A program made the position numbers and the translations under genes. From a virus: a stretch of 61,373 bases of DNA. Below, piece after piece: positions 6,917 through 61,277 of the stretch (within the stretch, counting starts at the first letter, position 1; the number at the start of each line of letters is the position of its first letter). Location: UHGV virus genome UHGV-1597594; one strand, 5' to 3'. The notes beneath the pieces are model-generated. The model was not told where the DNA came from. It saw only the letters and a program-made list of their open reading frames with translations, and did not search any database.

Positions 6917-6917
6917 A

Positions 6918-7409: not shown

Positions 7410-7432
7410 ATTAAGTATGTGTTTGTATGTTG

Positions 7433-13007: not shown

Positions 13008-13382
13008 CTATTCGAAATCTGCATCATCTACATTTTCATTAGGGTCATAGATAAGCCATACAAATGCTGCACAGCCAAGTATGAATAAGCCTCCGCCAAT
13101 GATTGTCGTAAAAACCGAACCAATCCAATGCTTCATAATATCACCGAGCGGATTCAATGTTTCATAGCCAATCATAAATGCGACAAATACAACTATTATT
13201 GCTGCTATTGCTTTGTTTGTGGTGTTTCGTTTTATTGTTGCCATTGTAGTAGAGGTTTGTTGTGTTCTGTATATTATGTTCGAATATATGAGGACATATA
13301 TTATATATAGATATATTATACAACAACAACACAATTTTTGCACACTTTTATAAACCAAAATTTCACAAAAATGCAAACACAA
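13008..13382 (-). CDS. small membrane protein (true start probably an internal Met near 13247)
   Basis: Hydrophobic stretches AIAAIIVVFVAFMIGY and IGGGLFILGCAAFVWLIY; the N-terminal 45 aa of the track ORF are low-complexity and overlap the plus-strand gene. Confidence 0.45.
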   Translation of the reverse strand: MCLHFCEILVYKSVQKLCCCCIIYLYIIYVLIYSNIIYRTQQTSTTMATIKRNTTNKAIAAIIVVFVAFMIGYETLNPLGDIMKHWIGSVFTTIIGGGLFILGCAAFVWLIYDPNENVDDADFE

Positions 13383-26909: not shown

Positions 26910-27968
26910 TTATTGCTTCAAGCCTGTGAACAGTTCATACTTGAATGCCGGCGCTGCTGCGTAATCCTCAAAGTAGAAGTCACCAATGTTGATGCTAGCA
27001 ATAGCGTCATCGACTGCTTTCTTGTAGCCTACGCGTTCAATTGTCTGCTTATCGCATTTACGCCAATATGTGCTGTGCATCATAAGTGTGGGTGATGCAG
27101 CATAGTCTACTGCAAGCTGTTGTTTTGCAGTGTCAATGTGATGTTCATAGATGTGCACATCATTGCCAGTCCAAATGAACTCTCTTGCCACACAGTTAGT
27201 CAATGTTGCAACAATATGTGTAAGCAATGCATATGATGCGATATTGATGGGCACACCAAGACACATGTCACAGCTACGTTGAGTAAGCGCACAGTCAAGC
27301 CACATGCTTGGTACTTGAGCAGAATCAAGGCATTCTGCAGAGCCATCATGCACAAGCATGCTATCATTAGCAATCTGAATTCGTTCTTCAAGAGTCATTG
27401 GCTGACAATTGAACTGAAACAGCATATGACATGGCGGCAATGCCATCTGAGACATTTGCGCAGGATTCCATGCAGACACGACTTTGTAGCGGCCAGTTGG
27501 ATTGATGACAATGTCTTTAATGCAAGTTGCAAGTTGGTCAAATCCACTGTCATTGAAGTTGCGCCACTGATACCCATAGATAGGTCCGCAATCACCATAC
27601 TCAGGCTTGCTGAATTTTGTGTTATGCAGTTCTGTGCACCAAGTTTCAAAGTCGACATCTTCACCTGGATGCAGTTTACGCCAATGACGATATGCATCCT
27701 GATGCCAGAACTTTGTAATGCCAAGCGTGTCAAGCGTTTTTACATTTGTATCACCTGACATAAACCACAGAAGTTCTCCAATGACACCCTTGACAAACAT
27801 TCTCTTAGATGTTAACAGTGGAAAGCCTTTACGCAAATCAAATCGCATTGATTCTACGAACAGTGACTTTGTGCGAGGCATGTTTTCACGAGCAGGCTCC
27901 TTAAATCTGCCATGCTCAATAACATTGTTAAGTACTCTCAAGTACTCAGTGTCGTGTTTGATATTCAT
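26910..27968 (-). CDS. thyA: thymidylate synthase (ThyA family, uracil-type active site)
   Basis: ATG at 27968. ALPPCHMLFQF (catalytic Cys motif) and QRSCDMCLGVPINIASYALLTHIVA, retaining the Asn of PxNIAS that specifies dUMP in ThyA. 352 aa, with a ~40-aa insertion relative to bacterial ThyA. Confidence 0.8.
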   Translation of the reverse strand: MNIKHDTEYLRVLNNVIEHGRFKEPARENMPRTKSLFVESMRFDLRKGFPLLTSKRMFVKGVIGELLWFMSGDTNVKTLDTLGITKFWHQDAYRHWRKLHPGEDVDFETWCTELHNTKFSKPEYGDCGPIYGYQWRNFNDSGFDQLATCIKDIVINPTGRYKVVSAWNPAQMSQMALPPCHMLFQFNCQPMTLEERIQIANDSMLVHDGSAECLDSAQVPSMWLDCALTQRSCDMCLGVPINIASYALLTHIVATLTNCVAREFIWTGNDVHIYEHHIDTAKQQLAVDYAASPTLMMHSTYWRKCDKQTIERVGYKKAVDDAIASINIGDFYFEDYAAAPAFKYELFTGLKQ

Positions 27969-30806: not shown

Positions 30807-31163
30807 CTATTTGCGCATAAATAATGCAGCAAGCCAATTAACTGGCTTGTCAATAAGCTGCTTCCATACATTCCAATTGTACATGCCATGCGCAAACATT
30901 GTAAGAGCAAACAGCAGCATACACATTGATACAAGCCAATCAGCAAATGGCATATTGCCCCATCGAATGTACTCGAAAATGCCAACTTTAACAAGCTGAG
31001 CAAACAAAATGAGCACTACAGCCATTGCAAGTCGCATCCAGACTACATAGTGCTGAGTCTTATCTACAAACTTTGCAATCAATGCTGGCACAATGTACAT
31101 AATGTATGCAAACAGCAACAAGCAAAAGCCTGCATACAGCAGATTAGAAATAAAAGCTCCCAT
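30807..31163 (-). CDS. small membrane protein
   Basis: ATG at 31163; 118 aa with three hydrophobic segments. Confidence 0.5.
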   Translation of the reverse strand: MGAFISNLLYAGFCLLLFAYIMYIVPALIAKFVDKTQHYVVWMRLAMAVVLILFAQLVKVGIFEYIRWGNMPFADWLVSMCMLLFALTMFAHGMYNWNVWKQLIDKPVNWLAALFMRK

Positions 31164-31166
31164 ATT

Positions 31167-32048
31167 CTATCGTTTGAATTTGATGAAGTGTTCAGCATCA
31201 AGGCCCTCGAATACATACGGGTCAAGAGTTTCCCAGAAGTTTGAGTATGTCGTTGTCTTTGCAATGCTTGTTTGCTTTGACAAGTTCATATTTGGGTAGC
31301 CAAGCATTGCATAGTGTCGCTCATATATGTGCATTGACGTCGCATTATGCACATATGCGCCAAGCTTAAGACCAAGTTCATTTGCGACAAGTTCTTGCAA
31401 CAAAGTGAATGCAAACTGGTCGTTACAGAAGCCCCAAATGACATCATTGCTTCGCATGTATGTTGTCAAGTACAGCTTATCACCACGAACATTAAAGACA
31501 AGATTCAATGTGCATGGCATGTCTTTGCCAGTGTAGTTTGCATATTGTGGCTCATAAATGCTAATAACTGCTCGTCTTGTGCATTCATGATTTCGCAAAC
31601 GTTCAATGACATCTGCAATCTGCTTATGCCAAATTGCACCATACTGCGAATTGACATTGACATCATCATCACTGAACTGCTTCCAGCGAGGCAAATAACG
31701 TTCAATGCATTCAACTGCAGGATTGGCTGTCATGTACCATGCAAATTCTGCTGCAGCATTGAGCTTTTTCCATGGTCGTACATCAATCTTGATTTGTCGC
31801 TGTGAAGGGTCCTGAATAACTACAGACACATTCAGCAATTCTTTTGTTCGAGTCACTGTTTGTGCATTGTTGCCCTTTGATTCTACAAACTCACCTCTAC
31901 AATGAAGTTCATACAAAATTGAGCGAAATGCTTCTGTTGCAGTGTTTTCAATGATTGTCGTCTGTTGATAACATAAATTTGACGACAATGATTCAGCATC
32001 ATTGTACTTTATGCTGTCATTGTTATAAGGTGAATTTTTTGTGTGCAT
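31167..32048 (-). CDS. ThyA-family pyrimidine hydroxymethylase-like enzyme (candidate dCMP hydroxymethylase)
   Basis: ATG at 32048. MPCTLNLVF (catalytic Cys region) and YMRSNDVIWGFCNDQFAFTLL align gap-free with ThyA RSCDVFLGLPFNIASYALL; Asp replaces the specificity Asn. Confidence 0.7.
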   Translation of the reverse strand: MHTKNSPYNNDSIKYNDAESLSSNLCYQQTTIIENTATEAFRSILYELHCRGEFVESKGNNAQTVTRTKELLNVSVVIQDPSQRQIKIDVRPWKKLNAAAEFAWYMTANPAVECIERYLPRWKQFSDDDVNVNSQYGAIWHKQIADVIERLRNHECTRRAVISIYEPQYANYTGKDMPCTLNLVFNVRGDKLYLTTYMRSNDVIWGFCNDQFAFTLLQELVANELGLKLGAYVHNATSMHIYERHYAMLGYPNMNLSKQTSIAKTTTYSNFWETLDPYVFEGLDAEHFIKFKR

Positions 32049-37555: not shown

Positions 37556-37903
37556 TCATTTTGCAAGCATTTTGCTGATTGCATCTATCACAGTTTCACT
37601 GAGCAAGTAGTAGACAACGCTTATCAGCAATGATATCAGTACTGCAGCTGTGATAAATTGCAACGCATTCATAATTGCACGCACAAATGTTATTTGCGTG
37701 TTGTATGCAAGCACTATGCAGCATAACATAATGATGATACACCACACTACAATTGCATATGCAGGCAGCAATGAATTTGTCCATATGCAGTACAATGCAG
37801 TAGTTAGCATCAAAAATGCTATTGCTCTGATGACTGACACAATGATGTCTATGTAGGGCTTCATTGCACGTAAATGAACTCTTGGCTTATGCGGTTTCAT
37901 CAT
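37556..37903 (-). CDS. small membrane protein
   Basis: 115-aa ORF, mostly hydrophobic. Confidence 0.5.
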   Translation of the reverse strand: MMKPHKPRVHLRAMKPYIDIIVSVIRAIAFLMLTTALYCIWTNSLLPAYAIVVWCIIIMLCCIVLAYNTQITFVRAIMNALQFITAAVLISLLISVVYYLLSETVIDAISKMLAK

Positions 37904-39132
37904 GACTTTATGTACAATTCTGCAAGTTGTCTGGTGTACAGTCGTGGATTATGATATGCTTTCCAATATGCAGTAGACTTTATTGCAGCAAGAATCTCAT
38001 CATAATGTTTGACTGCTTCTGCTACAACTTCATCAAGCACGCTCAAATCTTCTACACTGACAAGCAACCATTTTTCTACAATATCAATGAACTCCTGATT
38101 GCAATTGAAGCCATACTTGTAGTTGCAAGTGTCAAGTACAAGTGGAATGCAATCATTTGTCAATGCTTCAAAAAATCTACGAAGACTGAAACAATTCTCA
38201 TCATATGATGGAATGCTTAATGTAAACTTGGCAGTCTTGATGAGTTGCAAATACTCTTCATATGGAATCAGAGGACCATTGTGCTTCCACTGATTGTTAT
38301 GTCGTCTTGTTGTGTACTTGAACAAAAACTTTGAACTGTCAAGCTCACAAAGATGGTCCATGCGTAAAATGTAGTTATAGCGGTCTCTTCTATCAGGCCA
38401 ACTGTCAGTCATTGCAAACACAAAGTCTCTTTGCTTGTCACATTTTGCTGACATGCCTCTATGCTGACACATGCAATACCAATATTGCTGTGATGGACTG
38501 AACTCGAATTTTGAGTGATGTTCGCTTCCATCTTTGCATTGTTGAACGTAAATATTGTCAGGCACAAAGTGAAAATAGAAGTGTCGAATTTGCAAGCCGT
38601 CAATGTAGTCAAGCTTATGCTGCAATGGGTCTTCACAGAAATTGTAACATTGAATGTGCTTTACTGCTGCATACTCAGCAACTATGAATGTGCACATCCA
38701 TTGCAATGCAATATCTTCACTTTTCAAAAAGTCTACAAGCGGTTCGTTTGGATGCGCTTTGCATTCATTGAACATTTTGTACCACTTGCACTGCTCCATA
38801 TCGTACTTTGAGACTGTATTGCCATTAAAGAATGACACAGTGTCAATTTTGAATGCATCAAGCTGTTTATGCACAATGTCAAGTGCTTGTGCATATGTGA
38901 TTGTCTCATCAGACATTATCTGCGCAAACTTGATTGGATATGCATGCAAATTTGCGATAGTGTCTGCTGACATTTTACGCTGTGTATGATAATCGACATA
39001 CAAAAACTGACATTTATCTGTAAGCAATTCAAGCATTGCTACAGATTTCCATCGAATTGCTTGAAAGAAATTGAAGTGCGCAGTTTGAAAAATGAGATGC
39101 GTAGGCTTGTCAGAATGAGTCAAAGTTTGCAT
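37900..39132 (-). CDS. GT-B-fold glycosyltransferase-like protein (paralog X1)
   Basis: ATG at 39132 (track start 39138 is TTG). C-terminal PSYDENCFSLRRFFEALTNDCIPLV fits the GT-B/GT4 signature PSxxExxxxxxxxEAxxxGxPxV; EDPLQHKLDYIDG and SPSQQYWY are shared with CDS 42133-43689. Confidence 0.6.
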   Translation of the reverse strand: MQTLTHSDKPTHLIFQTAHFNFFQAIRWKSVAMLELLTDKCQFLYVDYHTQRKMSADTIANLHAYPIKFAQIMSDETITYAQALDIVHKQLDAFKIDTVSFFNGNTVSKYDMEQCKWYKMFNECKAHPNEPLVDFLKSEDIALQWMCTFIVAEYAAVKHIQCYNFCEDPLQHKLDYIDGLQIRHFYFHFVPDNIYVQQCKDGSEHHSKFEFSPSQQYWYCMCQHRGMSAKCDKQRDFVFAMTDSWPDRRDRYNYILRMDHLCELDSSKFLFKYTTRRHNNQWKHNGPLIPYEEYLQLIKTAKFTLSIPSYDENCFSLRRFFEALTNDCIPLVLDTCNYKYGFNCNQEFIDIVEKWLLVSVEDLSVLDEVVAEAVKHYDEILAAIKSTAYWKAYHNPRLYTRQLAELYIKS

Positions 39133-40295
39133 GGACAAATGTCGCAGTTATGTTGATGTTTGTGTTTATTTATGAAGTCATATGTCACTGCAAAAAAGTG
39201 CTTTGCAATGTCATATCGAGTTTTCAAATATGACGCTTGGCGTTCACAAAACGCTGCATAAATGTCTGGGTGTTGTTTGAATGCAGCAATGCGTTGCTGT
39301 ACTTGTTCTGCAGAATGTACATATGACACTTTGCTCAAATATGCATCATCTGCAAATAATCGTCTGTCTTTGTCAACTGCGCAATCAACAAAAGTTGCAA
39401 TTCGTGCAACAATGGCTTCACCAACACGATTTGGCATCAACCCATATTGCTCATATTGTTGGTCACCAATAGCAATGTGTGCTGCTGCATATGACATTGC
39501 ATATGGCACACTATAAAATGGCACGCTAAAATCAAATGAGCAATTTGACTGTAGTAGTTGCGCTTGTGCATCAGACAATCTACTTGTCAAGTTGCCTGTA
39601 TGTTTGTGCTCACCAAGAAAACTTGAGCGACAACCTGAATCTACATAGTATCGAATGACTTTGTTTATGCGACTGTCAGATAGCATATGCCAATCTCTTG
39701 TAGCATATATCAAGTCTACTGTTTTTGCACCAATATGACGAGGCTCTATCGCAACATTGCTGTACGTTGGTAGCATGAACAATGGCAGCCATTTGACATT
39801 GTTGAACACTGAATGCTCATTTGACAAATTCATGCACTGGCTAAGTTCAAGTACTGGCTCATCATACACGCCATGTAGCTCAACTCTGCCTGCATGCACA
39901 AAGTTGACACGCTTAAATGGGAATCGCATGTCAGTACAAATTGTCATTCTTGCTGCAGTAGACATTCGCCACATAGCATGCAGCTTAACAACTGCTTCTG
40001 CTTGAGGTCGAGGCAACATATTTAGCAAATCAATCCAGCCACCCCACAAAATCCAAACATCATTTGAACAGATGTTGAATTGCAAACTCAATATGTCTTC
40101 TACTGTTGCAGCAATGATGTCATGCCCATTGATGCTTGCAAGGTGCTTTCGTTGATTTGCAATAAGAATGACTTGGCTGAATGGAGACTCTGGAAATGAC
40201 ACAAGCGCTTTTGCAAACAACACGGGTTCTTGCGACACCAAGTTGTTTGAGTATGGGTCGATTATGCAATCAAGCTTGTGTATGAAGAGTCTCAT
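39120..40295 (-). CDS. hypothetical protein (paralog Y1 of 43686-44855)
   Basis: 391 aa; shares AHIAIGDQQYEQYGLMPNRVGEAIV with LVVGDSLYVQAGLLPNRWVEGVL of CDS 43686-44855. Confidence 0.55.
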   Translation of the reverse strand: MRLFIHKLDCIIDPYSNNLVSQEPVLFAKALVSFPESPFSQVILIANQRKHLASINGHDIIAATVEDILSLQFNICSNDVWILWGGWIDLLNMLPRPQAEAVVKLHAMWRMSTAARMTICTDMRFPFKRVNFVHAGRVELHGVYDEPVLELSQCMNLSNEHSVFNNVKWLPLFMLPTYSNVAIEPRHIGAKTVDLIYATRDWHMLSDSRINKVIRYYVDSGCRSSFLGEHKHTGNLTSRLSDAQAQLLQSNCSFDFSVPFYSVPYAMSYAAAHIAIGDQQYEQYGLMPNRVGEAIVARIATFVDCAVDKDRRLFADDAYLSKVSYVHSAEQVQQRIAAFKQHPDIYAAFCERQASYLKTRYDIAKHFFAVTYDFINKHKHQHNCDICPCKL

Positions 40296-41026
40296 TTTGC
40301 AGATGATTCAAAAAATTTGTAGACATCGCAGTTAGCAATGTGGTCATTCCAAGCATCTTCAGAGTCTGCAACAAAGCCACAATGACAGCGTTTTGGTTGC
40401 CAAACTGGTTCAACTACTGCAGGCATTGCTTCTTCAATAGTGTTTGCAGGTTCATTATCTGCTGGCAATACTTCAACGTCTTCAACTTGTGCTGCATCTT
40501 GTTGTGTACGCTGCTCAATGACATTGCCCTCAAAGTCAAACTGAATGCCAGCTTGTTCTGCTTTTGTACGATTGTTACGAGCTACGAACAAATACGCAAA
40601 GATGAATTCGACAAGCGCTATAGCAAGTGACTTCAATGCATTGACAAGAAGCATGATGCCAGTTGATAAGTGACCATCAAAGCTCAAAAATACGAACACA
40701 CATGTAAAGCATGACATAAACACTGCAATCAGTGGAATGTTCTTGTATTTTGGCAACAAATCAGAGTTGACTGACGTAAGCAACACAACGAATTGATAGC
40801 CTATCGCAAGCCAATGGTCGCCAAACACTGCATAGATATGCGTAGTGATGCCAATAAGAAATGTGATAGTCACAATCATAATGAGCAACACACTTGTCAG
40901 AAAGTCTGCAATAGAATTGCTGAGCTTGTCATACCAGTGTTTGTTGACAATTGATGTGTTGGCTACGCGCACTTTACTAAGTGCATCTATGCCGCTTTTG
41001 ATATTTGATTGTGCTTTCATACACAT
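40292..41026 (-). CDS. polytopic membrane protein
   Basis: 244 aa with at least four hydrophobic segments and a Cys/His-containing C-terminal tail. Confidence 0.55.
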   Translation of the reverse strand: MCMKAQSNIKSGIDALSKVRVANTSIVNKHWYDKLSNSIADFLTSVLLIMIVTITFLIGITTHIYAVFGDHWLAIGYQFVVLLTSVNSDLLPKYKNIPLIAVFMSCFTCVFVFLSFDGHLSTGIMLLVNALKSLAIALVEFIFAYLFVARNNRTKAEQAGIQFDFEGNVIEQRTQQDAAQVEDVEVLPADNEPANTIEEAMPAVVEPVWQPKRCHCGFVADSEDAWNDHIANCDVYKFFESSAK

Positions 41027-42132: not shown

Positions 42133-43689
42133 TCATTGCACTTCTACGAATGGCTCTTTCAACACAAAGCTGTCACCATTGCAACATGCGGCTGAGCAAT
42201 CGTCTGCATCAAGTGCACATGACATATCAGACTTACAGAACTTGCAATATGAACATGACCATGCATGACTCATAAAGTCGTTTGCTTCACAAATTACACA
42301 GCGCTCATGTGAAAGTGTATTGTCGCAATTGTCACAAGACTTTTTGATTGGCACATCTTTATTGATATATGCAAGATGCAATGCAATATCATACACAAAG
42401 TCGCCCGTATATTGCTGAATGAAATCAGTGTGCCACAGTTCTTTCAATAATTGCGCATGTCTGTATGGCTGAACAATGTCTTCAAGATGCTGCAAGTCAT
42501 CATCGCTAACCATGAGCTTCTTAATGACAAACTGTTTGAACTGTGGCCATCTGTCAAACATATAGAGTTTGCATGAGTTGTGCACAAGTGGAACACAGCC
42601 AAGCACAATGCTTTCACAGAATCTACGCAAACTAAAACAGTTTGCATCATATGACGGCACAATCAATGTGAATCTGCTATGCTTGATGAGTTCAAGGTAT
42701 GTGTCATATGGCAGTAGCTTATCTGACAATTGCTGTTGTTGTTTGTCTCTGCTGAAAAATCTGAACACAATGCCTTTGTCAATTGCATCTTGATTGTGTA
42801 GATGCATGAGTTTGCTGATGAGTTCTGTGCGTTCAGTTTTGTCTCGCCAAGTATTCGTCAATGCAAATGCAAAATTTAGTCGCTTGTCATCAAATGTCGC
42901 TTCAATGTCATTCCAAGTTTTGCCATGCAAATACCAGTATTGCTGTGATGGACACCATCCATAGTATGCGACAGCATCTTGTTCTGCTGTAACGTCGTAC
43001 ACATATGCAGAATTGTATTCAAGACCAAGCTTTTTGACATTGTTGCAGTCATGAAAATACCAATGCTGCACTTTGAATATCTTTGATGCACTGAATGCGC
43101 TTTCATATGGCCCTGAATAGCGATAGTCAATGTAATTGAGCTTGTGCTGCAATGGGTCTTCGACAAAGTTGTTTATGACTGTGCCTTGTTGTTTGTCCTT
43201 AGTCTTGCGAGCATTCAATGCAACATTGTATTGCATGATGACTGACAGCATCTCATACACTACATACATGAGTGCTTTGTAGACTGAGCCTGCTGCGTCA
43301 ATTAGTGGCAAATCACGTTTGACTGATGTAGCACCAAATGTCTTGCAATATGCAGAAAATGTGTCAAGTTCTGCTTGCTGAAATGAATTGCATGCACCAT
43401 TGAATATGTTGAATGTTGCAATGTAGCTCATATTGCAAGACGTCATTGACATATCAAGACGCTTCATAATGTCGACAATGCGACATTGAGCAAAATCTGA
43501 CACATCAACATATTTGACATGATGGCATGATGTAGTCAAGCCATCTGCGACATCTTTCATCTGTGGCACAAAGCCTATAACAATGAACAAGTCATCTTTG
43601 TTTGCTCGTTCAAACATTGCTGCACTTTTCCAAGTCAATGAATTGAAAAAGTCTATGTAGCCAGTTTGAGTGATGATATGTGTTCTCAT
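42133..43689 (-). CDS. GT-B-fold glycosyltransferase-like protein (paralog X2) with Cys-rich C-terminal extension
   Basis: ATG at 43689. PSYDANCFSLRRFCESIVLGCVPLV signature; about 80 extra C-terminal residues with 14 Cys. Confidence 0.6.
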   Translation of the reverse strand: MRTHIITQTGYIDFFNSLTWKSAAMFERANKDDLFIVIGFVPQMKDVADGLTTSCHHVKYVDVSDFAQCRIVDIMKRLDMSMTSCNMSYIATFNIFNGACNSFQQAELDTFSAYCKTFGATSVKRDLPLIDAAGSVYKALMYVVYEMLSVIMQYNVALNARKTKDKQQGTVINNFVEDPLQHKLNYIDYRYSGPYESAFSASKIFKVQHWYFHDCNNVKKLGLEYNSAYVYDVTAEQDAVAYYGWCPSQQYWYLHGKTWNDIEATFDDKRLNFAFALTNTWRDKTERTELISKLMHLHNQDAIDKGIVFRFFSRDKQQQQLSDKLLPYDTYLELIKHSRFTLIVPSYDANCFSLRRFCESIVLGCVPLVHNSCKLYMFDRWPQFKQFVIKKLMVSDDDLQHLEDIVQPYRHAQLLKELWHTDFIQQYTGDFVYDIALHLAYINKDVPIKKSCDNCDNTLSHERCVICEANDFMSHAWSCSYCKFCKSDMSCALDADDCSAACCNGDSFVLKEPFVEVQ

Positions 43690-44855
43690 GATTTGAATGT
43701 TTGTTCAAGAATAGTGTAACACTGCACAATCATTGCTGCAAGAGCTTTTTGCTGTGCTTGTTTGCAATCATCAAAATTTGTGGGCGCGGTGCGTACGCGT
43801 GTTTTGCTATTAAGTGTTGCAAATGTCGCGTAGTCATTGAAGTCTACGATATCAGCAAATATGGCGCTTGGCTCATAATCTACAAGTATATTGCAGCAAT
43901 TTGCAAGTACGCCTTCAACCCATCGATTTGGCAGCAAGCCTGCTTGCACATACAATGAATCACCAACTACAAGATTGTACGCGGACCTCGACATTACATG
44001 AGGCATTGCATCATATGCGACTTTGTATTTAAGTGTAAAGTTTGGCGCTGCTGATTTAACCGCAGACAAAATTGTGTCATCAAGATATGATGTTATGAGA
44101 CATGTGTCGCACATATGTATGACAAATTGTTCAATCACACTTCTACGATACTCGTCAAGATATGTGAAACCTGCACAACTTGCACAGCATGCATATTGCT
44201 GCTTTATGTCAGCAAAGCTAAGCACATGAGCTTCAATTGCATTTTGCATCGTTGCTTGTCGTTTGAGCAATCTTGGCTCTTTAATGCATTGAAGCTTCAA
44301 TGCATTGACTGCTGCAATGATTTGCAATGGCACAAACACGCATTGAGACTCATCAAGCCAAGCATACTTGAGATTTTTATGTTGACACAGATGCGTAATG
44401 TAGTCTTTTTGCGATTCTAAGTACTCTTTGTAATTGTGCAATCGCTTTGTCAATGTGCACTCTTTACCAAAATCAAATCGCAAATCAGTTGTTAGCGTAA
44501 ATTTGCGAACATTTGACAAACACCATGCTTTGAACGCATTCCACAGAACATCTTGCTGAAATTCTGAGCAATGCTCAAGAGCAGCCTTTGAGCCCTGCCA
44601 GAATATTGCGCAATCATCTGATTTTGCACACTTCAGCATATCTTGCCATGCATGTATGTTATTGATAATATGCACGTTATCATAATACACAAGCTCTTCA
44701 AGTATTGCATGCTTGTTCTCAGGGTCGCCAAACACGTACACTGCATCAAACATTGTTTGAACAAACCCTGCAAATGCAATGGGTTCTGTATGTTTAAGAT
44801 GCTGTATGTCTGAACGCACACATGTGTCAAATTTCAAAATGAAGAGTTTGCTCAT
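43686..44855 (-). CDS. hypothetical protein (paralog Y2)
   Basis: ATG at 44855, preceded by the promoter-like box at 44875-44895; homologous to CDS 39120-40295. Confidence 0.55.
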   Translation of the reverse strand: MSKLFILKFDTCVRSDIQHLKHTEPIAFAGFVQTMFDAVYVFGDPENKHAILEELVYYDNVHIINNIHAWQDMLKCAKSDDCAIFWQGSKAALEHCSEFQQDVLWNAFKAWCLSNVRKFTLTTDLRFDFGKECTLTKRLHNYKEYLESQKDYITHLCQHKNLKYAWLDESQCVFVPLQIIAAVNALKLQCIKEPRLLKRQATMQNAIEAHVLSFADIKQQYACCASCAGFTYLDEYRRSVIEQFVIHMCDTCLITSYLDDTILSAVKSAAPNFTLKYKVAYDAMPHVMSRSAYNLVVGDSLYVQAGLLPNRWVEGVLANCCNILVDYEPSAIFADIVDFNDYATFATLNSKTRVRTAPTNFDDCKQAQQKALAAMIVQCYTILEQTFKS

Positions 44856-45552
44856 ATGCTTTGCAATTATCTATTACATGTTGATATTGTACTTCATCTA
44901 TGATGTGATTTGCAATGACACCATATGAAGTGTCATACATTGGCATCTTCTCATATGACAATGCTGCATCAAGATTGCATATCACATAATTGCAATGCAC
45001 AATGTCATCTACATTGTCACTAACTGCTACGATATTGACACACTTTGCAAGAAATGCATCATCAAAGTCTACTTGATTGCATGCAACCTCATAATCTGCA
45101 GCGCTTCTTGGGTACCAATATAACTCAATGCCTGCACTGCTAAGTAGTCGCAAGCCATCTATGTGATGATACAAGTCAATAAAATGCACTTGCTTAACAC
45201 CTGCTTGCAAAATAAGCTTTGCGCAATCAATGCATGGACTATATGTTACATACAACACAGCATCGTTTGCAGTCGCATTGCCATATTTGCACAGCTTCAT
45301 CAATGCATTTGATTCTGCATGCAAAACTTCTTTGTTGGTTTTGATGCCAGCTGAAGTATCATGTTCGCAACAATTTGACATACCAGTTGGCATGCCATTG
45401 TAGCCATCTGAAATTATGCGGCTGTCTTTTACAAGCAATGCGCCAACTTTTGCTCTCTGAGCATGTGAATTCAATGACCAAAGCTCAGCCATTTTAAGAT
45501 ATATGAGATTTCGTTGAAACCACTTCGTTTCAGACCAAGTCAGCCATTTCAT
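44827..45552 (-). CDS. dCMP deaminase (cytidine/deoxycytidylate deaminase zinc-binding family)
   Basis: ATG at 45552. HAESNAL (H-A-E) and YSPCIDCAKLI (PCxxC) zinc-ligand motifs. Confidence 0.8.
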   Translation of the reverse strand: MKWLTWSETKWFQRNLIYLKMAELWSLNSHAQRAKVGALLVKDSRIISDGYNGMPTGMSNCCEHDTSAGIKTNKEVLHAESNALMKLCKYGNATANDAVLYVTYSPCIDCAKLILQAGVKQVHFIDLYHHIDGLRLLSSAGIELYWYPRSAADYEVACNQVDFDDAFLAKCVNIVAVSDNVDDIVHCNYVICNLDAALSYEKMPMYDTSYGVIANHIIDEVQYQHVIDNCKAYEQTLHFEI

Positions 45553-52142: not shown

Positions 52143-52181
52143 GAAAAAGAGGCTCAGACAAACAATGTCTGTCTGAGCCTC
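52143..52181 (-). terminator. intrinsic terminator downstream of CDS 52207-53337
   Basis: Perfect 12-bp stem gaggctcagaca/tgtctgagcctc with 9-nt loop; A-run 52143-52148 gives a T-run on the minus transcript. Confidence 0.65.
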
Positions 52182-53488: not shown

Positions 53489-54610
53489 TTATCTTGCATG
53501 ACCGCAATCGTACACTGCAACATAACCAGCATCAATCATCTCTTGCTCATCTTGTCCGCAGTCTTCAATATGCTCTTTTGTCTTCAAATGACACCAGTGT
53601 TTGCGAATTGTTGACATGTCATCTGACAACTGTGGATTGAGTGCGAAGTCTGTTGAGTTTATTGATAGCTTTGCTAAATGCATGCCAACAATTGACACAA
53701 CGTCGTTTAAGTTATACCAGTCAAAAATTGTTATGCATATGTAGCCATGTTTGAGAGCAAGTTGAGTCTTATCAAAATGATAATGCATATGCATTGGCAC
53801 ATTATTATGTGTTCTATTATTTAGATATGCAAAACTGTACGTGCTATTGTGCGATATTGTTGGGCTAATTTCTATAACTATGTCATTATATCGCAAATCA
53901 TACAATCTGCCACCTATTAAATGCGAATATTCAAAGTTAATGCCAAGAGCATGTAATATCTTATCATGCACAAATAACTCAAGCTTTGAACATGGCTTTG
54001 ACTTTGAGCGCACGCTAAAATGGCATACAGCGCCATACAAGTCTGCTAAACGTTCACGAATCAAAGTCAAATTGCCAAACGCGTTGCCCCATCGTGCACG
54101 TTTAGTTTTACACATTTTAGCAACATTGCCATTTGCATAACCATAACGTTCTAAATTTGTTGCACAGATTTTTGAGCGGTCACCCCATGCATTGCCATAT
54201 TTACGTTTTTTGGTATCAATTGCCTTTGCTTTGTTGCCATAGCCATTGCCAAATCGCTGTACTTTAGTTGCAGTAATTTTTTCTACATTGCCATTTGCGT
54301 GGCCATAACGTTTTAAGTTTGTTGCTTGCATTTTTGCAATCATTGCATCAACGTCATTATTTGCACGTCTGGTATTGATTGCTTGATTTTTTAGCGCAGT
54401 GCATTTCATCGCATTTTCAAACCCATACTTTCTTAAGCACCCAATTTTGTAGTTGTACTTTCGTGCAATTTCACTATGAGCTGTCTTATGTTTGCCTAAT
54501 CTAACATTCTCTGTTGCCCTTAACAATTCATCTCTTTCAGCTTCAAGTTCTGCAATTCTTTTCTCAATAGCTGCGCCAGTTAATGGCGTATCTTGCTTGT
54601 AGCGACTCAT
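53489..54610 (-). CDS. homing-endonuclease-like protein, paralog of 4600-5562
   Basis: ATG at 54610. N-terminal coiled coil (IEKRIAELEAERDELL), five ~18-aa repeats (ATNLKRYGHANGNVEKI and variants), C-terminal YDLRYNDIVIEISPTISHNS...FALNPQ...KHW...YDCGHA shared with CDS 4600-5562. Confidence 0.6.
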   Translation of the reverse strand: MSRYKQDTPLTGAAIEKRIAELEAERDELLRATENVRLGKHKTAHSEIARKYNYKIGCLRKYGFENAMKCTALKNQAINTRRANNDVDAMIAKMQATNLKRYGHANGNVEKITATKVQRFGNGYGNKAKAIDTKKRKYGNAWGDRSKICATNLERYGYANGNVAKMCKTKRARWGNAFGNLTLIRERLADLYGAVCHFSVRSKSKPCSKLELFVHDKILHALGINFEYSHLIGGRLYDLRYNDIVIEISPTISHNSTYSFAYLNNRTHNNVPMHMHYHFDKTQLALKHGYICITIFDWYNLNDVVSIVGMHLAKLSINSTDFALNPQLSDDMSTIRKHWCHLKTKEHIEDCGQDEQEMIDAGYVAVYDCGHAR

Positions 54611-54629
54611 GCATATAAACTTACAACTG

Positions 54630-55385
54630 TCATTTCACTTCAGGTTTTGCTTGCTTGGCCAACTCAGCTTCGGCATTGAACTCTTTGCCCTCAGCTTTCA
54701 TTGTTTCAGCATAAGTCTTTTCGTCAGTGTAACGTTCTACGTCATTACCAAGCAGTTTTGCGACTTCGTCATCTGCTTCAAACAATGGCTGTGGATTGTC
54801 ATCATTATCATCTTTGAGTTGCTCAAATGCGCCGTTGTGTTTTTCTGCAATTTTGATAAGGTCTACGATTGAACGAGTTACGAGTTCACCATTGATGCCT
54901 GACTGCTGTTCAGATTGACCAGAGCCTTGTTGCAATTCTGCTTGAGTTGCTCGAACATTATTATTGAGTGACGCAACTATATTGGGAAGAGTTCGACAAT
55001 ACGCTATATATTGCTGAACCAACGACATTGCGTCATTCTGCAGTTTGATGAGAAATGCAAACTCACCCATGCCACCGCCTTGTGCATCAATGCGCTCGAA
55101 CACTGAATCAAGTGCATGCATTGCATAAAACACTTGTTTGCAAAGCAAATTGATGTTTGTCTTCTCCATCTCAATTGATGCATCGATAAATGGCGACTTA
55201 ACATCTGCTGCTATGCACAATTTGCGAACTTCATCAACGTATTTTGAACACTTGTCAAGTGTCTTGTCAAGTTTGCTTCGGTCAAACTGCTTGTAAACTT
55301 CTAACGCATCGCTTACTTCTGCAGCATCCAATATTGCATTTGCTGCAGCCAATTCTGATTCTCTGCTCATCTCAAAATGGTCCAA
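54630..55385 (-). CDS. hypothetical acidic protein
   Basis: 251-aa ORF; no motif. Confidence 0.55.
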   Translation of the reverse strand: MDHFEMSRESELAAANAILDAAEVSDALEVYKQFDRSKLDKTLDKCSKYVDEVRKLCIAADVKSPFIDASIEMEKTNINLLCKQVFYAMHALDSVFERIDAQGGGMGEFAFLIKLQNDAMSLVQQYIAYCRTLPNIVASLNNNVRATQAELQQGSGQSEQQSGINGELVTRSIVDLIKIAEKHNGAFEQLKDDNDDNPQPLFEADDEVAKLLGNDVERYTDEKTYAETMKAEGKEFNAEAELAKQAKPEVK

Positions 55386-55981
55386 GCTTCAATGATTGCT
55401 GAAAAATCTTCAAAGGGCATTGTAGTGTAGCCGGAATCACCCCAAGATATGCCCCAGCTATTCTTGATGATGAATGAGTCTTTTGTATAGCCGACAATTG
55501 ACACTGCATGGCCACCAAAATTGCCATCGCCTTTCCAAAAATGCTCAGCTTCAATGTCTTTTACGAGCATGCCAACAAATACAGGCCCATTTGCCACAAC
55601 AGCAGATTTGACTTCATCAATTGTGTAACAACGTCTGTATGCAGTTATTGGCAATTGTTCTGTGCCCTTTGACATCTTAATTGGCTGTGCTTTGAGCAGC
55701 TTAAAGACGTCACGTGGAATCATGCCCTCTTGAGGCGCATTTGAACGACGCTCATACAATGCTTTGATGTCAAGTTTGCCTTGCATAGACAACACAGAAG
55801 ACCACCAGTCAATCATTGTTGCAGCTGTGTAAGCTGCACACATTGATGTGCTGCCTTGGTCTTCTACTTGAAGTTGAGCCAACTTGTACACAAGTGGCAA
55901 ATCAGTTTTTGCATCAAAACGCAAGTCTCTGTCATCTTTAGGTGACTGGATGTAGCCCAGTCCATATGTTGTATGTTTCAT
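55367..55981 (-). CDS. papain-like (C1-family-like) cysteine peptidase, candidate endolysin/peptidase
   Basis: ATG at 55981. QGSTSMCAAYTAA (Cys nucleophile region), GGHAVSIVGY (His region) and KNSWGISWGDSGY (Asn/Trp region) are in the order typical of papain-family peptidases. Confidence 0.65.
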   Translation of the reverse strand: MKHTTYGLGYIQSPKDDRDLRFDAKTDLPLVYKLAQLQVEDQGSTSMCAAYTAATMIDWWSSVLSMQGKLDIKALYERRSNAPQEGMIPRDVFKLLKAQPIKMSKGTEQLPITAYRRCYTIDEVKSAVVANGPVFVGMLVKDIEAEHFWKGDGNFGGHAVSIVGYTKDSFIIKNSWGISWGDSGYTTMPFEDFSAIIEAWTILR

Positions 55982-55996
55982 ATCAGATAATGTATC

Positions 55997-56269
55997 TCAT
56001 TGCTCATGCCAGTGCCTTGTCAAGTCAAACATTGCTTCACGTTGCACCTTTGTGCATTTCGTAGTGCCTGCCACAGCTGTAATATTGAATGTAGCATAAT
56101 TGCTCAAGTTTTGCAACTGGGTCATACGCAAGACTAATTGGCATATTGTATGCGTCAACAACTCTGGTTTGAGCTTTTGCAACAATATGTCAGCAGTTTT
56201 GCTATGTTCAGCAAAGTCACAGTAGGTGACTTGGCCTGATGGACTTAACCAGCAAGATTGCATTGTCAT
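55997..56269 (-). CDS. small hypothetical protein
   Basis: 90-aa ORF; no motif. Confidence 0.4.
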   Translation of the reverse strand: MTMQSCWLSPSGQVTYCDFAEHSKTADILLQKLKPELLTHTICQLVLRMTQLQNLSNYATFNITAVAGTTKCTKVQREAMFDLTRHWHEQ

Positions 56270-56628
56270 TCATTTGGTTGAGGCTCAATTCGCATAACTA
56301 CACGCACAGAATCTCTGTAAGGATACACTGATGCGACAATCAAATACCAACGTTTGTTGTCAACTTTGCCATTTGACTTAATGTATGGCGCTGAAGTAGT
56401 AATGTATCGAGCATGTTTGAATGTCGTATCTACTCTTGCAACAAGACAAGTAGAATCAGTCGCTTGAGCATGCCACACATCAATTTCAGGCAAATGCGTA
56501 TTATGTGCATTGCATACACTATCAACAAATTCTCGTGGTTGCAAAGTGACAGTTGACACATATGTTGGCTTAACTGCGGCACATGCAATGCATGCAATTG
56601 CAATGAACAACAATGTAAATCGTTTCAT
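56266..56628 (-). CDS. putative lipoprotein (signal peptide with Cys lipobox-like site)
   Basis: N-terminus MKRFTLLFIAIACIACAAV; 120 aa. Confidence 0.55.
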   Translation of the reverse strand: MKRFTLLFIAIACIACAAVKPTYVSTVTLQPREFVDSVCNAHNTHLPEIDVWHAQATDSTCLVARVDTTFKHARYITTSAPYIKSNGKVDNKRWYLIVASVYPYRDSVRVVMRIEPQPNE

Positions 56629-56632
56629 ATTC

Positions 56633-56902
56633 TTAGACGTTTTGTAGTTCTACAATATCATATCGCTTATGCAATTCAGACCAGTCACGAACATAGCCAG
56701 TCATAAAGACATGCAACATGTATGGCTTGCTGTCAGCATACTTGACTGCACATGTAGCATCTTTGATTTGCTTGGCAGTTAGCCAAACTTCTGCGTTGTT
56801 ACTTGTGTATACGCAATGATACACAGGCTCTGACAATTCAGTCACTGTGATTTTATTGCCATTGCGCAATATGCATCGTACTTGTTTGTCCATTGCTTGC
56901 AA
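56633..56902 (-). CDS. small hypothetical protein (paralog of 57217-57513)
   Basis: Shares ITEL..PV..C...........L(T)..........Y(M/A)LHV...GYVR.W(S/T)EL with CDS 57217-57513. Confidence 0.45.
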   Translation of the reverse strand: MQAMDKQVRCILRNGNKITVTELSEPVYHCVYTSNNAEVWLTAKQIKDATCAVKYADSKPYMLHVFMTGYVRDWSELHKRYDIVELQNV

Positions 56903-56923
56903 TTTATGATATTGTTAAGATAT

Positions 56924-57226
56924 CTACAAAAAGCAATGCACCATAAAACCCAAGAACATAATTATTGCAGGCTGCATGATGCAATACATAAAGAACTGCG
57001 CAGCAATCGGCAATTCACTGAACTTGTTGACTGTGTCATAATTCTTGAACAATGCCAGTACAAATGATATCCCAATTGCATGCTTAAGCGATAACGCAGT
57101 CAACGCGGGCCACACAGGCATCACAAACCACTCCCAGAAGTTCATAATAATGTAGCCATTCAGAATGTAGCCTAACAGCATGAACATAATGCATGCAACA
57201 GTTGTCAGAAAGTTTTTCATATACAC
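56924..57226 (-). CDS. small membrane protein (holin-like by size and hydrophobicity)
   Basis: 100 aa with three hydrophobic segments. Confidence 0.45.
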   Translation of the reverse strand: MYMKNFLTTVACIMFMLLGYILNGYIIMNFWEWFVMPVWPALTALSLKHAIGISFVLALFKNYDTVNKFSELPIAAQFFMYCIMQPAIIMFLGFMVHCFL

Positions 57227-57513
57227 TCAAGTTTTATGATGTCAGTTCTTAATGATTTGTATGCGGCAAATAATTCAGTCCAGCCTCGTACATAACCAAC
57301 ACCACTGACATGTAATGCATGTGCATCTGGTATTGCATGACAATGTCTTGCATGAGGCTGCTGTTCAAGTTCTGCTTGTGTAAGATAGGCCTTTGATGTG
57401 TCATCATACACAAAGCATGGAAATACTGGCTGTGCAAGTTCTGTTATATCAATGTCTTGACCATTAGATAGCTTTGCAAGATATACTGTATTGGATTGCA
57501 TATTAGCTTGCAT
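57217..57513 (-). CDS. small hypothetical protein (paralog of 56633-56902)
   Basis: See 56633-56902. Confidence 0.45.
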   Translation of the reverse strand: MQANMQSNTVYLAKLSNGQDIDITELAQPVFPCFVYDDTSKAYLTQAELEQQPHARHCHAIPDAHALHVSGVGYVRGWTELFAAYKSLRTDIIKLECI

Positions 57514-59217: not shown

Positions 59218-59382
59218 TGTTGTAGAGATTTTTGTGTACTATATTGATATATGATAATTGTACTACAAAAATCACAAATTTGCACTGATTTGATATATAA
59301 TATGTCAATAAATTTCACATACAAAAGTCTTTTCGCTTATGAAAACTACTCAACTCTGGTTTGAACGCCAGCAGTCAATCGC

Positions 59383-59463: not shown

Positions 59464-60117
59464 ATGCAAGAAGTCGAATGCTATGATGCTGACACTGGTG
59501 AATTCTTAGCAGGCTCACCTATCACAGTGCAGCCAAATGGCATGCCAACATATAAGTTGACAATTCCTGCAAACAGGCTTGGTGCAGGTGCATTGTCAAT
59601 TTGTTCAGTGTATCTTGATAATGTCAGTGTAAATGACTGTCTACGTTATGGCACTGGCTCCACTTTATATTGCTATGCAGGTCAAGGTGAGACGCTTGAT
59701 AATGTCAATTTGACATGTGGTGATACACTTGCATGCTTACCCTGGATTCACGAAATTCATAGAGGCGATTCAGAGACAAATGAACAACGCATAGCAATTG
59801 TGCTTGATGGCATTGAACATTTTTGCACTGATGAAGACATTCAGCTACTTGCATCGACATTGTCACACCCATTAGAATCATTTGGAGATGACAAAGTGTT
59901 TGCAGGCAAGCCTACGTACTATGACAATTGCTTTGCTGAATGGCTAATGCTCAATGATTTTCAAGCAGGCAACATGGTCGATACGTCTGTCACTGACTGC
60001 ATTTTGCTTATTGCAAATGACCCAGTAGTTGGCAATGACATCTTGATTACTCTTGAGCACATCACATCAGCGTTCAACTTCAATATGTATGACATGACAA
60101 ACTGGAATATGCTGTAA
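59464..60117 (+). CDS. hypothetical protein; full-length form probably starts at ATG 59339 in the +1 frame across the G7 tract
   Basis: ORF-track ORF starts at an internal Met; reading from ATG 59339 with one extra G in the tract gives a stop-free, in-frame extension (MKTTQLWFERQQSIAGGALRDTIISGTINKADGSLLEAAYAT-MQEVE...). Confidence 0.6.
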   Translation: MQEVECYDADTGEFLAGSPITVQPNGMPTYKLTIPANRLGAGALSICSVYLDNVSVNDCLRYGTGSTLYCYAGQGETLDNVNLTCGDTLACLPWIHEIHRGDSETNEQRIAIVLDGIEHFCTDEDIQLLASTLSHPLESFGDDKVFAGKPTYYDNCFAEWLMLNDFQAGNMVDTSVTDCILLIANDPVVGNDILITLEHITSAFNFNMYDMTNWNML

Positions 60118-60130: not shown

Positions 60131-60166
60131 CACAAAAAGACTCAGCAATATTGCTGAGTCTTTTTG
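60131..60166. terminator. bidirectional intrinsic terminator
   Basis: aaaaagactcagcaatattgctgagtcttttt: 11-bp perfect stem, 2-nt loop, flanking A5 and T5. Confidence 0.75.
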
Positions 60167-60237
60167 TGTGCACTGTGACGCGCTTAATTGATACAGTCTA
60201 AGTGTAACATAGTCTGAAATGTTTACAAATTTACTTA

Positions 60238-60702
60238 TCAAATACCAATGTATATTGCGTATTCTGATGTTTTGATATCATCAGCGTCAAATTCAATTTC
60301 ACCATAGTTTTCATCACCTTGTGTTGCTATGATATGTGTAGCAAGCTTAACTTCATCATAGTACAAATCATAGAACACTTGCGTGCCTTTGTAAATTGTG
60401 ATAGCTGTGTTATTATCATACAACACTGGCGTCACTGTTTTAACAGGACCAACTTCTTGTGGCAAGGCCCTATCAAGAAATGTCAGTCTAATTGGTGTAG
60501 TGTACCGAGTATAAATATGCACGGTGAACTGCTTTAACAGCTTTCTTTGTTGGAGGGCTTGTTGTGCCCCCCCCCCAGTTACGAGGGATTTGCATATGAA
60601 TTGAGTTTTTGAAGTGAGTTGAGTTTTGATGCAAGATGCAAAACAACTAAGATGTTGTTTTGATATGTACATATGGGCAGTCAAAATATATAAAACAAAC
60701 AA
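60238..60702 (-). CDS. hypothetical protein with G10 tract near the 5' end; N-terminal boundary unreliable
   Basis: GGG codons (VTGGGAQQ) are the 10-nt homopolymer at 60567-60576; the 42 aa upstream look non-protein-like; an ATG (atgcaaatccctcgtaactgg) just upstream of the tract is out of frame by one. Confidence 0.4.
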   Translation of the reverse strand: MFVLYILTAHMYISKQHLSCFASCIKTQLTSKTQFICKSLVTGGGAQQALQQRKLLKQFTVHIYTRYTTPIRLTFLDRALPQEVGPVKTVTPVLYDNNTAITIYKGTQVFYDLYYDEVKLATHIIATQGDENYGEIEFDADDIKTSEYAIYIGI

Positions 60703-60760
60703 TTTAATAATTTGAAAAACTCATAAGCTTTATGACATTCAAATTGAACTGGGGGGGGGG
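60567..60760. repeat. 14-bp inverted repeat with homopolymers (C10-agtt ... aact-G10) flanking a ~170-bp AT-rich segment
   Basis: ccccccccccagtt at 60567-60580 and aactgggggggggg at 60747-60760 are exact reverse complements. Confidence 0.85.
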
Positions 60761-60869: not shown

Positions 60870-61277
60870 ATGGCAGTTCAAACACGTTCGGTACTCAAGA
60901 CATATTTTGAAACCGGAGATAAACCCACCTCAGCACAATTTGGCGACCTCATTGATAGTGCGTTGATGGCGAAAGCAACGCTTGAATCTGCGTCATTTAA
61001 TGCAGTCGCAAACACAGTGCATAATATAACGACATCGTCAGCAATAACATGCACATTGTCAAACTTAACATATGGCGAATCATGTGTTATTAATCGAGTA
61101 GGCAATGCGACAGTTTGCAATGCGACAACAACATTTGCATTCAATAATGGGCCATTGTACTATGCAGCGGGCTACTCAGATGTATCAGCAGATGCTACGG
61201 GTGCAATGTCATATGCAATTCTTATTGCAGGTAACACAACTCGTTGGGTGTTAATCAATCGCGCTTTCTACAAATAG
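60870..61277 (+). CDS. hypothetical protein (N-terminus MAVQTR shared with the next gene)
   Basis: ATG at 60870; 135 aa. Confidence 0.55.
   Translation: MAVQTRSVLKTYFETGDKPTSAQFGDLIDSALMAKATLESASFNAVANTVHNITTSSAITCTLSNLTYGESCVINRVGNATVCNATTTFAFNNGPLYYAAGYSDVSADATGAMSYAILIAGNTTRWVLINRAFYK

Follow-up and report, generated by a model that had tools for sequence, protein, structure and literature searches.

A xylellain-type C1A peptidase and its conserved lipoprotein partner in a PAU/Lak-related phage: a two-gene module possibly directed at the cell envelope

The subject of this account is a small group of genes within a stretch of 61,373 nucleotides from the virus genome UHGV-1597594 (the whole of this stretch being referred to below as the window), and in particular a gene for a papain-like cysteine peptidase together with the gene for a small lipoprotein with which it is paired. 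The window corresponds to the replication and nucleotide-metabolism section of a large phage and contains a few structural genes; two IMG/VR contigs (174.6 and 175.6 kb) are about 95% identical to it over 47–59 kb, and it makes up some 35% of a genome of roughly 175 kb, the remaining two-thirds of which is unseen. According to the list of open reading frames (ORFs), all the genes around the peptidase region lie on the minus strand, the order of transcription being an ORF of 318 amino acids (aa), a 98-aa ORF, a 100-aa membrane protein, an 89-aa ORF, a 120-aa lipoprotein, a 90-aa ORF, the 204-aa peptidase, a 251-aa ORF, a 373-aa ORF and finally gp32, which is identified by its match to Pfam PF08804 (E = 2e-16). 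An initial annotation, made from the sequence alone, had described the lipoprotein and the membrane protein as following the peptidase, but because all three ORFs are on the minus strand they in fact precede it in transcription. The features concerned are collected in Table 1.

Table 1. Features of the peptidase region and of the operon that contains it.
Feature	Position	Strand	Evidence or remark
Promoter-like motif GTAGTACAAT	59257..59266	-	Head of operon 59217 to 52207
98-aa soluble ORF	57217..57513	-	Paralog of 56633-56902
100-aa membrane protein, three hydrophobic segments	56924..57226	-	Hydropathy; phrog_2169 'membrane protein', E = 1e-6
89-aa soluble ORF	56633..56902	-	Paralog of 57217-57513
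Small lipoprotein, 120 aa	56266..56628	-	Lipobox Cys16; narrow phage family, conserved upstream partner of peptidase
90-aa soluble ORF between lipoprotein and peptidase	55997..56269	-	Start overlaps lipoprotein stop
Xylellain-type C1A (papain-family) cysteine peptidase, 204 aa	55367..55981	-	Pfam, PHROG, PDB phmmer, alignment, AlphaFold, Foldseek
Acidic, helical protein, 251 aa as listed	54630..55385	-	Listed start TTG 55385
Strong intrinsic-terminator-like hairpin, 15-bp stem and T run	52149..52181	-	Just after gp32

In the case of the peptidase, the ordered Cys, His and Asn/Trp motifs of C1 type that had been picked out at the outset prove to be real, being borne out by Pfam, PHROG, alignment and fold alike. 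Gln42 and Cys48 (codon 55838–55840) lie in the motif QGSTSMCAAY, His158 (codon 55508–55510) in GGHAVSIVGY, and Asn174 (codon 55460–55462), Ser175 and Trp176 in KNSWGISWGDSGY; the catalytic Gln (of the oxyanion hole), Cys, His and Asn thus stand in papain order, to an extent far beyond chance. The match to Pfam PF00112 (Peptidase_C1) has E = 5.9e-10 and a score of 40 bits (gathering cut-off 20.7), and the same family is carried by 50 of 53 homologues; the match to phrog_16701 (‘peptidase’) has E = 1e-19, and a phmmer search of the PDB returned procerain, ervatamin, papain and xylellain. Across an alignment of 26 sequences there is no variation at His158 and Asn174, at least 90% keep Gln42 and Cys48, and Asn174-Ser-Trp as a whole is invariant or nearly so. 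An AlphaFold model built on this alignment has a predicted local distance difference test (pLDDT) score of 94.1 and a predicted TM-score (pTM) of 0.91, and when this model was compared with the PDB using Foldseek the top match was xylellain (3ois; E = 1.2e-14, query TM-score (TMq) 0.81–0.84), the other 49 of the top 50 being cathepsins or papains, many of them zymogens, so that all 50 are of C1A type with the two-lobed papain fold. No CHAP or NlpC/P60 structure occurs among these top 50 matches, and as between the C1, CHAP and NlpC/P60 folds the choice therefore falls clearly on C1A, a CHAP or NlpC/P60 reading being ruled out by fold. A match to Peptidase_C39_2 is sub-threshold (E = 6.9e-4, 20.6 bits as against the 24 needed), and no domain from the demonstrated muralytic families (lysozyme, amidase, CHAP, NlpC/P60, M15, M23) was found above threshold in the peptidase, Peptidase_C1 being the only one to reach it.

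The peptidase has no signal peptide, its N-terminus is not hydrophobic, it carries no long pro-domain, and its isoelectric point is 6.3; since it has just two Cys, it must lack the three disulfides of secreted papains. Judged from sequence and predicted fold, the gene product is a short C1A peptidase with a full catalytic set, of the xylellain type known from bacteria, that is to say a bona fide C1A protease, predicted to be synthesised in the cytoplasm and apparently active. Many uncultivated phages have homologues at 33–40% identity (more than 520 IMG/VR stretches), and others are found in Lak phages, DP SC_2_H4_2017, THSA-485A, XacN1 and some actinophages. The earlier remark that such a fold is rarely annotated in phages thus holds for GenBank, where 27 of 50,697 phage records contain a homologue, but not for metagenomic phages.

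The lipoprotein had also been correctly recognised. Its signal peptide ends in a lipobox (CIA/C16) of which Cys16 is invariant in an alignment of 37 sequences, and the mature form, of about 105 aa, is not proline-rich and is predicted to adopt a beta-alpha-beta3 fold (pLDDT 74.7). The sole hydrophobic segment spans residues 6–24 and the C-terminus reads ...RIEPQPNE, so there is no C-terminal transmembrane domain (TMD). The family to which it belongs is a small one: a profile search recovers 44 members, in which the lipobox Cys, Asp36-Ser37 and Gly87 are invariant (Gly87 falling in the beta2–beta3 hairpin), and 40 representatives at E ≤ 1e-3 were found in 1.84 billion proteins. As an observation in its own right, three large proteins (P0113, P0121 and P0128) contain tandem repeats to which the lipoprotein profile aligns with its C-terminal half (4–9 stretches in each), and in P0121 and P0128 these repeats read ...W.YSLNGG.TW...GQIQVQQTD.AGN and look immunoglobulin-like; such a match may reflect a distant fold relationship or may be an artefact of composition.

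Conservation of the pairing is what ties the two genes together. A lipoprotein of 96–124 aa lies directly upstream of the peptidase in L001 and L010 (both crAss-like contigs), in L009 (a recoded podovirus-like contig), in L013/L097, in the abundant, crAss-like L016/L022 clade (74 contigs) and in the L020 clade, and the closest diverged relative of the window, L104/L105 (65% identity), also pairs lipoprotein and peptidase, with a 101-aa ORF between them. The lipoproteins of the other lineages align with that of the window across their full length, and a hidden Markov model built from four of them finds the window lipoprotein as the best match of all window ORFs (E = 7.5e-4). A member of the lipoprotein family is present on the same strand in 93 of the 105 peptidase loci that were fetched (loci which are not independent, and which represent about eight lineages). 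In 84 of these the lipoprotein gene is separated from the start of the peptidase by −3, 0 or +4 nt, stop and start codons often overlapping; in the window lineage the gap, widened by the intervening ORF of 90–101 aa, is about 285–319 nt. When neighbourhoods were compared with that of the window, the peptidase and one MazG gene were found in common besides the lipoprotein, and nothing else.

It follows from adjacency in about eight lineages that the lipoprotein is functionally linked to the peptidase, and that the two together make up a conserved module of two genes whose translation is often coupled. The module has passed between Bacteroidota-type phages of very different kinds, namely the PAU/Lak-related myovirus considered here, crAss-like podoviruses, and others. 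Because L104/L105 and the other lineages keep these genes, the conserved unit can be defined as lipoprotein plus peptidase, joined in the window lineage by the 90-aa and 251-aa ORFs. No description of a conserved lipoprotein partner of a C1A peptidase was found in the literature searched, and the pairing therefore appears to be undescribed. The possibility that the protease might hitchhike through the Tat pathway on the lipoprotein is ruled out, as the signal peptides have no twin-arginine motif.

One explanation of so close a pairing would be that the lipoprotein is a dedicated inhibitor or immunity factor, acting in the periplasm on the C1A protease and thereby shielding the envelope of the infected cell from protease released by its neighbours or from superinfecting virions, somewhat as in the Bfp/Bfi, Cpi1 and T4 gp5/Spackle systems. 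Tight adjacency with overlapping stop and start codons is typical of enzyme–inhibitor pairs, lipoprotein inhibitors of papain-like proteases do exist (Bfi1B and Bfi4; Cpi1), and an invariant Gly in a hairpin, such as Gly87, is consistent with such a role. Comparison of the lipoprotein with staphostatin, chagasin and cystatin yielded no sequence similarity and no convincing similarity of fold, and on the whole this explanation seems quite unlikely.

The 90-aa ORF is specific to the window lineage, being 34% identical to the 101-aa ORF of the 65%-identity relative; it has no Pfam, PHROG, NCBIfam or PADLOC match, and tblastn gave no match in phages. For the acidic protein the true start is likely to be ATG 55370, giving 246 aa and overlapping the peptidase stop as ATGA; at 73% identity in L105 it is better conserved than the peptidase, and it has no family match in Pfam, PHROG, NCBIfam or PADLOC and no homology to the coiled-coil proteins found upstream of the pair in crAss-like contigs. 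The 89-aa and 98-aa paralogs (BLASTP 34% identity, E = 1.5e-12), which share the motif ...TEL..PV...GYVR.W.EL and flank the membrane protein, have no family match, and they are absent from L104/L105, where the block consists of the lipoprotein, the 101-aa ORF, the peptidase and a 254-aa ORF. PADLOC and NCBIfam scans of ten proteins of the cassette produced nothing useful.

As for the membrane protein, the three segments originally reported are confirmed by hydropathy (residues 10–28, 42–60 and 74–92). It ends in a hydrophobic segment (...FLGFMVHCFL) with no charged C-terminal tail, matches no holin family in PHROG (phrog_2169 being its sole match there), gave no match by tblastn, and is missing from L104/L105; it is a bystander, outside the conserved block. 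Small proteins with three TMDs are something of a feature of the window, five of them being scattered among the replication genes (13008–13382, 30807–31163, 37556–37903, 40292–41026 and 56924–57226); paralogy among the five was tested, and they are not detectably related.

These observations bear directly on the proposal, made in the initial annotation, of an endolysin with a spanin/holin arrangement at this locus, in which the peptidase would be an endolysin acting on peptidoglycan peptides, the lipoprotein an outer-membrane spanin component (o-spanin) and the membrane protein a holin. Superficially the architecture is right, with a soluble enzyme that has no signal peptide, a lipoprotein and a small three-TMD protein; homologues do occur within lysis cassettes of Gram-positive phages and beside holins (see below), and in L010 the lipoprotein is preceded by a protein with a TMD and a coiled coil that resembles an inner-membrane spanin component (i-spanin). 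C39-like domains of the papain superfamily are found in mycobacteriophage LysA (PMC3314691), and the peptidase has the sub-threshold C39 match already given. Against all this, the fold is C1A and not CHAP, NlpC/P60 or C39. No i-spanin was found in the window, the neighbouring 89-, 90-, 98- and 251-aa ORFs having no TMD, and the coiled-coil proteins upstream in L001 and L022 likewise have no real TMD; the mature lipoprotein, of about 105 aa, is predicted to be folded and is not proline-rich; the membrane protein has the shortcomings just described; the genes belong to a replication-type operon; and L097 has its own, separate Amidase_3 cassette, in which a single-TMD protein overlaps the amidase gene to form a canonical lysis pair. 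We know, moreover, of no C1A enzyme that cleaves peptidoglycan. The locus 55367–57226 is not a classical holin–endolysin–spanin cassette, and the reading of its three genes in those terms is improbable. In the L016/L022 clade, quite apart from this, the gene directly upstream of the coiled-coil, lipoprotein and peptidase genes (L022 3821–5047) encodes a 408-aa protein with an N-terminal ‘GKPMMPT’ motif, RuvC-like motifs and HNH motifs (HCQHCKG...HHI), and resembles an IscB-type nuclease.

A connection with lysis does nevertheless stand elsewhere, even though a classical cassette in the window does not. In the Thermoanaerobacterium phage THSA-485A the gene order is GH25 lysozyme, C1A peptidase, holin (phrog_13712, E = 1e-6); in Gordonia phage Aleemily the cysteine protease comes after the lysin A genes and is followed by holin and lysin B; and in Arthrobacter phage Mufasa8 the order is lysin A, membrane protein and then the cysteine protease, which ends the block. 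The 379-kb megaphage L002 has a TMD protein, a member of the lipoprotein family, a holin (phrog_1299, E = 2e-6) and two leucine-rich-repeat (LRR) proteins in succession, with the peptidase 3.5 kb downstream on the same strand, and in L020 three genes overlap head to tail, namely those for an 87-aa membrane protein, for the lipoprotein and for the peptidase.

Stop-codon recoding gives a further indication as to timing. In Lak-B5 (L014, a Prevotella phage) the peptidase gene contains 4–5 in-frame TAG codons, aligned to Gln in homologues, and comes straight after the portal gene (phrog_213, E = 7e-57), itself with 14 in-frame TAG codons; most of the genes neighbouring the peptidase have no in-frame TAG. 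It may be added that in the 14.5 kb of L014 examined (the observation concerns 4964–7564) no genes are heavily TAG-recoded apart from the portal, the peptidase and a GIY-YIG homing endonuclease (8 TAG). In L009 the peptidase gene has four in-frame TGA codons and lies within the structural module. As recoding of stop codons has been associated with late structural and lysis genes (Borges et al.), the recoded state of the Lak and L009 copies suggests that these are expressed late. The same two placements, beside a portal gene in one case and inside a structural module in the other, could be taken to mean, as the initial annotation had allowed for by way of alternative, that the peptidase is virion-associated or matures the head. 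In the window and in the crAss-like lineages, however, the gene is far from the head genes and within replication modules, the prohead proteases known to us belong to other folds, and a lipoprotein partner makes no sense for capsid maturation, so that such a function must be considered highly improbable.

Evidence as to expression in the window itself comes from a short motif, GTWGTACAWT, of which there are 11 exact copies, all on the minus (coding) strand, as against 0.84 expected (none of 100 shuffles reached 11). The copies are at 4462–4471, 4513–4522, 8154, 9334, 11427, 37490, 41285, 46346, 46969, 50497 and 59257, and one-mismatch copies occur upstream of the helicase gene (52198) and of gp32 (53425). 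Most lie in gaps upstream of replication-type genes, often inside ...TTTGCATGTWGTACAATAT..., and they precede PolB, the SbcC-like protein, a helicase and other non-structural genes, with no copy ahead of the structural genes (13.7–24 kb); the motif is probably a phage-specific early or middle promoter. Neither the Bacteroidota promoter consensus TTTG-N-TAnnTTTG nor the T4 late promoter TATAAATA is enriched in the window. No terminator is found between the head of the operon and gp32, and since the hairpin at 52149–52181 is the first terminator-like site downstream, the peptidase and gp32 appear to be co-transcribed.

It could also be supposed that the peptidase is an intracellular protease, expressed with the replication genes and acting on host or phage proteins in the cytoplasm for purposes of host takeover, anti-defence or recycling, and that the lipoprotein is a separate, co-transcribed factor for superinfection exclusion or receptor masking of the T5 Llp type. 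Such a protease would need no signal peptide and no disulfide cysteines, and the bacterial xylellain-type homologues also have no signal peptides (as seen in the 26-sequence alignment and in PMC10380794). An operon shared with gp32 behind a replication-class promoter motif fits, as does a location amid genes for replication and nucleotide metabolism, seen in the window, L001, L010, L022 and L097. Early-expressed phage lipoproteins, for their part, are classic exclusion factors. What this explanation leaves unaccounted for is the lasting adjacency and coupling of the two genes through horizontal transfer while every other neighbour changes, the recoded and apparently late copies in Lak and L009, and the lysis-cassette location of the Gram-positive homologues; nor did PADLOC or anything else give a hint of a defence-related target. 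It is possible, and no other rival to the reading adopted below is as credible, but on balance doubtful.

The reading that we prefer, to which a probability of roughly 0.4 might be attached, is that the protease of the pair has an accessory part in egress and is directed at the envelope, with the lipoprotein as its partner in the periplasm. Action on the cell envelope would be expected because one of the two partners is exported and lipid-anchored, while the recurrent holin/lysin neighbourhoods and the recoding point to the stage of release. The protease would accumulate in the cytoplasm from the middle period onwards, and only once the inner membrane gives way, as infection ends, would it gain access to the periplasm and cleave envelope proteins there, such as outer membrane–peptidoglycan tethers or surface layers; the lipoprotein would serve as its periplasmic partner, whether as docking factor, regulator or inhibitor. 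The protease would thus aid release without being the main peptidoglycan hydrolase. An accessory role of this kind is favoured because in relatives the role of endolysin appears to be covered by other enzymes, namely the Amidase_3 of L097 and, in crAss-like phages, the amidase that forms a lysis cassette with a spanin near the tail genes (Borges et al.).

There are, of course, several points that weigh against this. The pair in the window shares its operon with gp32 behind a promoter-like motif common to replication genes, and at least five lineages place the pair among genes for helicase, dUTPase, RecA, sliding clamp, ThyX and PolA, which points to expression early or in the middle period. 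(Large or T7-like phages can also have lytic enzymes, such as T4 e and T7 gp3.5, among their early or middle genes, so that location alone is weak evidence against a role in lysis.) The Gram-positive phage homologues are just 26–31% identical and have no lipoprotein. Among 42 further ORFs of the window, which itself covers about 35% of the genome, there is no Pfam match to a peptidoglycan hydrolase, and the phage's actual lysis genes were not seen within this visible portion. Finally, we know of no C1A enzyme that takes part in phage lysis.

A bolder version of the same idea would see in the pair a previously unrecognised system that uses a protease to breach or remodel the outer membrane at release, and that replaces or supplements spanins in Bacteroidota phages, crAss-like phages among them, with the lipoprotein positioning or gating the protease at the junction between outer membrane and peptidoglycan; taken as a whole, this is unlikely.

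That xylellain-type C1A peptidases occur in Caudoviricetes has already been noted (PMC10380794), with annotated examples in several phage genomes. Lysis and envelope manipulation by Bacteroidota phages, among them the very abundant crAss-like phages and the Lak megaphages, are poorly understood, and a mobile module of papain-type protease and dedicated lipoprotein, common to otherwise unrelated gut phages, offers a testable handle on the Bacteroidota envelope. Should the protease prove to target envelope proteins, phage egress factors would gain a new class, and enzybiotics a possible component; should the lipoprotein be an inhibitor, a new family of C1A inhibitors would be founded; and if neither is the case, what is left would be an ordinary, horizontally acquired xylellain-type peptidase of a kind already noted in phages.

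Regarding the phage as a whole, a 1113-aa protein of the window connects it to the jumbo Bacteroidota myoviruses MA9V-1, PTm1, pT24 and PAU and to the Lak megaphages, and it is a PAU/Lak-related myovirus. Shine-Dalgarno sequences are absent at its start codons, and a Bacteroidota host would fit with this. No GenBank phage gave a blastn match to the part of the window from 53 to 59 kb, a metagenome scan for nearer relatives found contigs of less than 5 kb only, and no tRNA genes were found. The window encodes a split family-B DNA polymerase, an SbcC-like protein, helicases and gp32, two ThyA-like proteins, dCMP deaminase, dUTPase/DCD, MazG, thioredoxin and glycosyltransferase-like proteins, together with baseplate and adaptor proteins (the structural genes being at 13.7–24 kb).

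Several other features of the window deserve brief mention. The two polymerase genes (3145–4437 and 7798–9303) are some 3.4 kb apart. Between them lies one of two paralogous DUF7487-like genes (4600–5562), the other of which (53489–54610; 37% identical, both with repeated RYGxANGN motifs) adjoins the peptidase block; in contig L008 a different ORF, of 378 aa, stands in its place. Such genes are likely to be mobile and of endonuclease type. Five segments (26910–27968, 31167–32048, 37900–40295, 42133–44855 and 44827–45552) hold the two ThyA-like genes, dCMP deaminase, dUTPase/DCD and MazG, along with a duplicated two-gene module of which the second genes match GT47/beta-glucosyltransferase-like families, and the whole looks like a cluster for DNA base hypermodification (glycosylated pyrimidine). 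Lastly, the segment 59291–60943 is inverted, relative to flanking collinear DNA, in the 95%-identical contig L008 (1179–2589). It holds a plus-strand ORF (59464–60117) and the start of another (60870–61277), whose N-terminus, ‘YFETGDKPTSAQFGDLIDS’, looks tail-fibre-like, and nearby are a perfect 19+19-nt palindrome (60131–60168) and C10/G10 inverted repeats (60567–60580 and 60747–60760); this may be an invertible or rearranging host-range region.

It remains to compare the pair with systems that are better known. What it shares with two-component spanins such as lambda Rz/Rz1, and with unimolecular ones such as T1 gp11, is a small lipoprotein gene beside an enzyme of lytic type. A lipobox lipoprotein is present as in Rz/Rz1, but an i-spanin is absent from the window and from most lineages (L010 alone having a candidate); unlike T1 gp11, the window lipoprotein has no C-terminal TMD, and relative to spanins in general it is larger, predicted to be folded and not proline-rich. 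Similarly, the membrane protein has the three segments of a class I holin but neither the charged cytoplasmic C-terminal tail nor a match to a holin family. The C1A proteins of the Gram-positive phages (THSA-485A; Gordonia Aleemily gp29; Arthrobacter Mufasa8 gp26) match Pfam Peptidase_C1, have no signal peptide and lie beside holins or lysins, but at their level of identity, with no lipoprotein partner and with hosts whose envelope is different, the likeness is one of location and not of mechanism. An analogy can also be drawn with baculovirus V-CATH, a viral C1A cathepsin that brings about post-mortem liquefaction of the host at release, alongside a polysaccharide hydrolase. V-CATH differs in its eukaryotic cathepsin origin, its pro-domain and its use of the secretory pathway, and is not related by descent to the xylellain type.

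Closer in genetic arrangement are the Bacteroides fragilis Bfi1B and Bfi4, staphostatin-like lipoprotein inhibitors that are co-transcribed with C10 proteases, one C10 gene (bfp3) being on a prophage (PMC2873492): here too a papain-superfamily protease gene is juxtaposed and co-transcribed with that of a small lipoprotein, in a Bacteroidota context. Pseudomonas Cpi1 is a chagasin-like lipoprotein inhibitor of C1A proteases. In both of these systems the proteases are exported, whereas the phage peptidase has no signal peptide.

The closest counterpart of the peptidase itself is xylellain, from Xylella fastidiosa (PDB 3OIS), the best structural match, with which it has in common the N-terminal motif G-Y-I-x-S-P-x-D-D-R-D, the catalytic Gln/Cys/His/Asn and the lack of a signal peptide. 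It is shorter, at 204 aa as against 291 aa for the 3ois chain, and because it begins about 25 residues into the aligned xylellain sequence it probably lacks most of the N-terminal segment that covers the active site in xylellain. According to a 2023 survey (PMC10380794), Caudoviricetes and Mimiviridae have acquired xylellain-type C1A genes by transfer. The genes around two bacterial homologues (P0045 and P0020) are uninformative, and what sets the phage peptidase apart from those examined is that it has a dedicated lipoprotein neighbour, whereas they have none.

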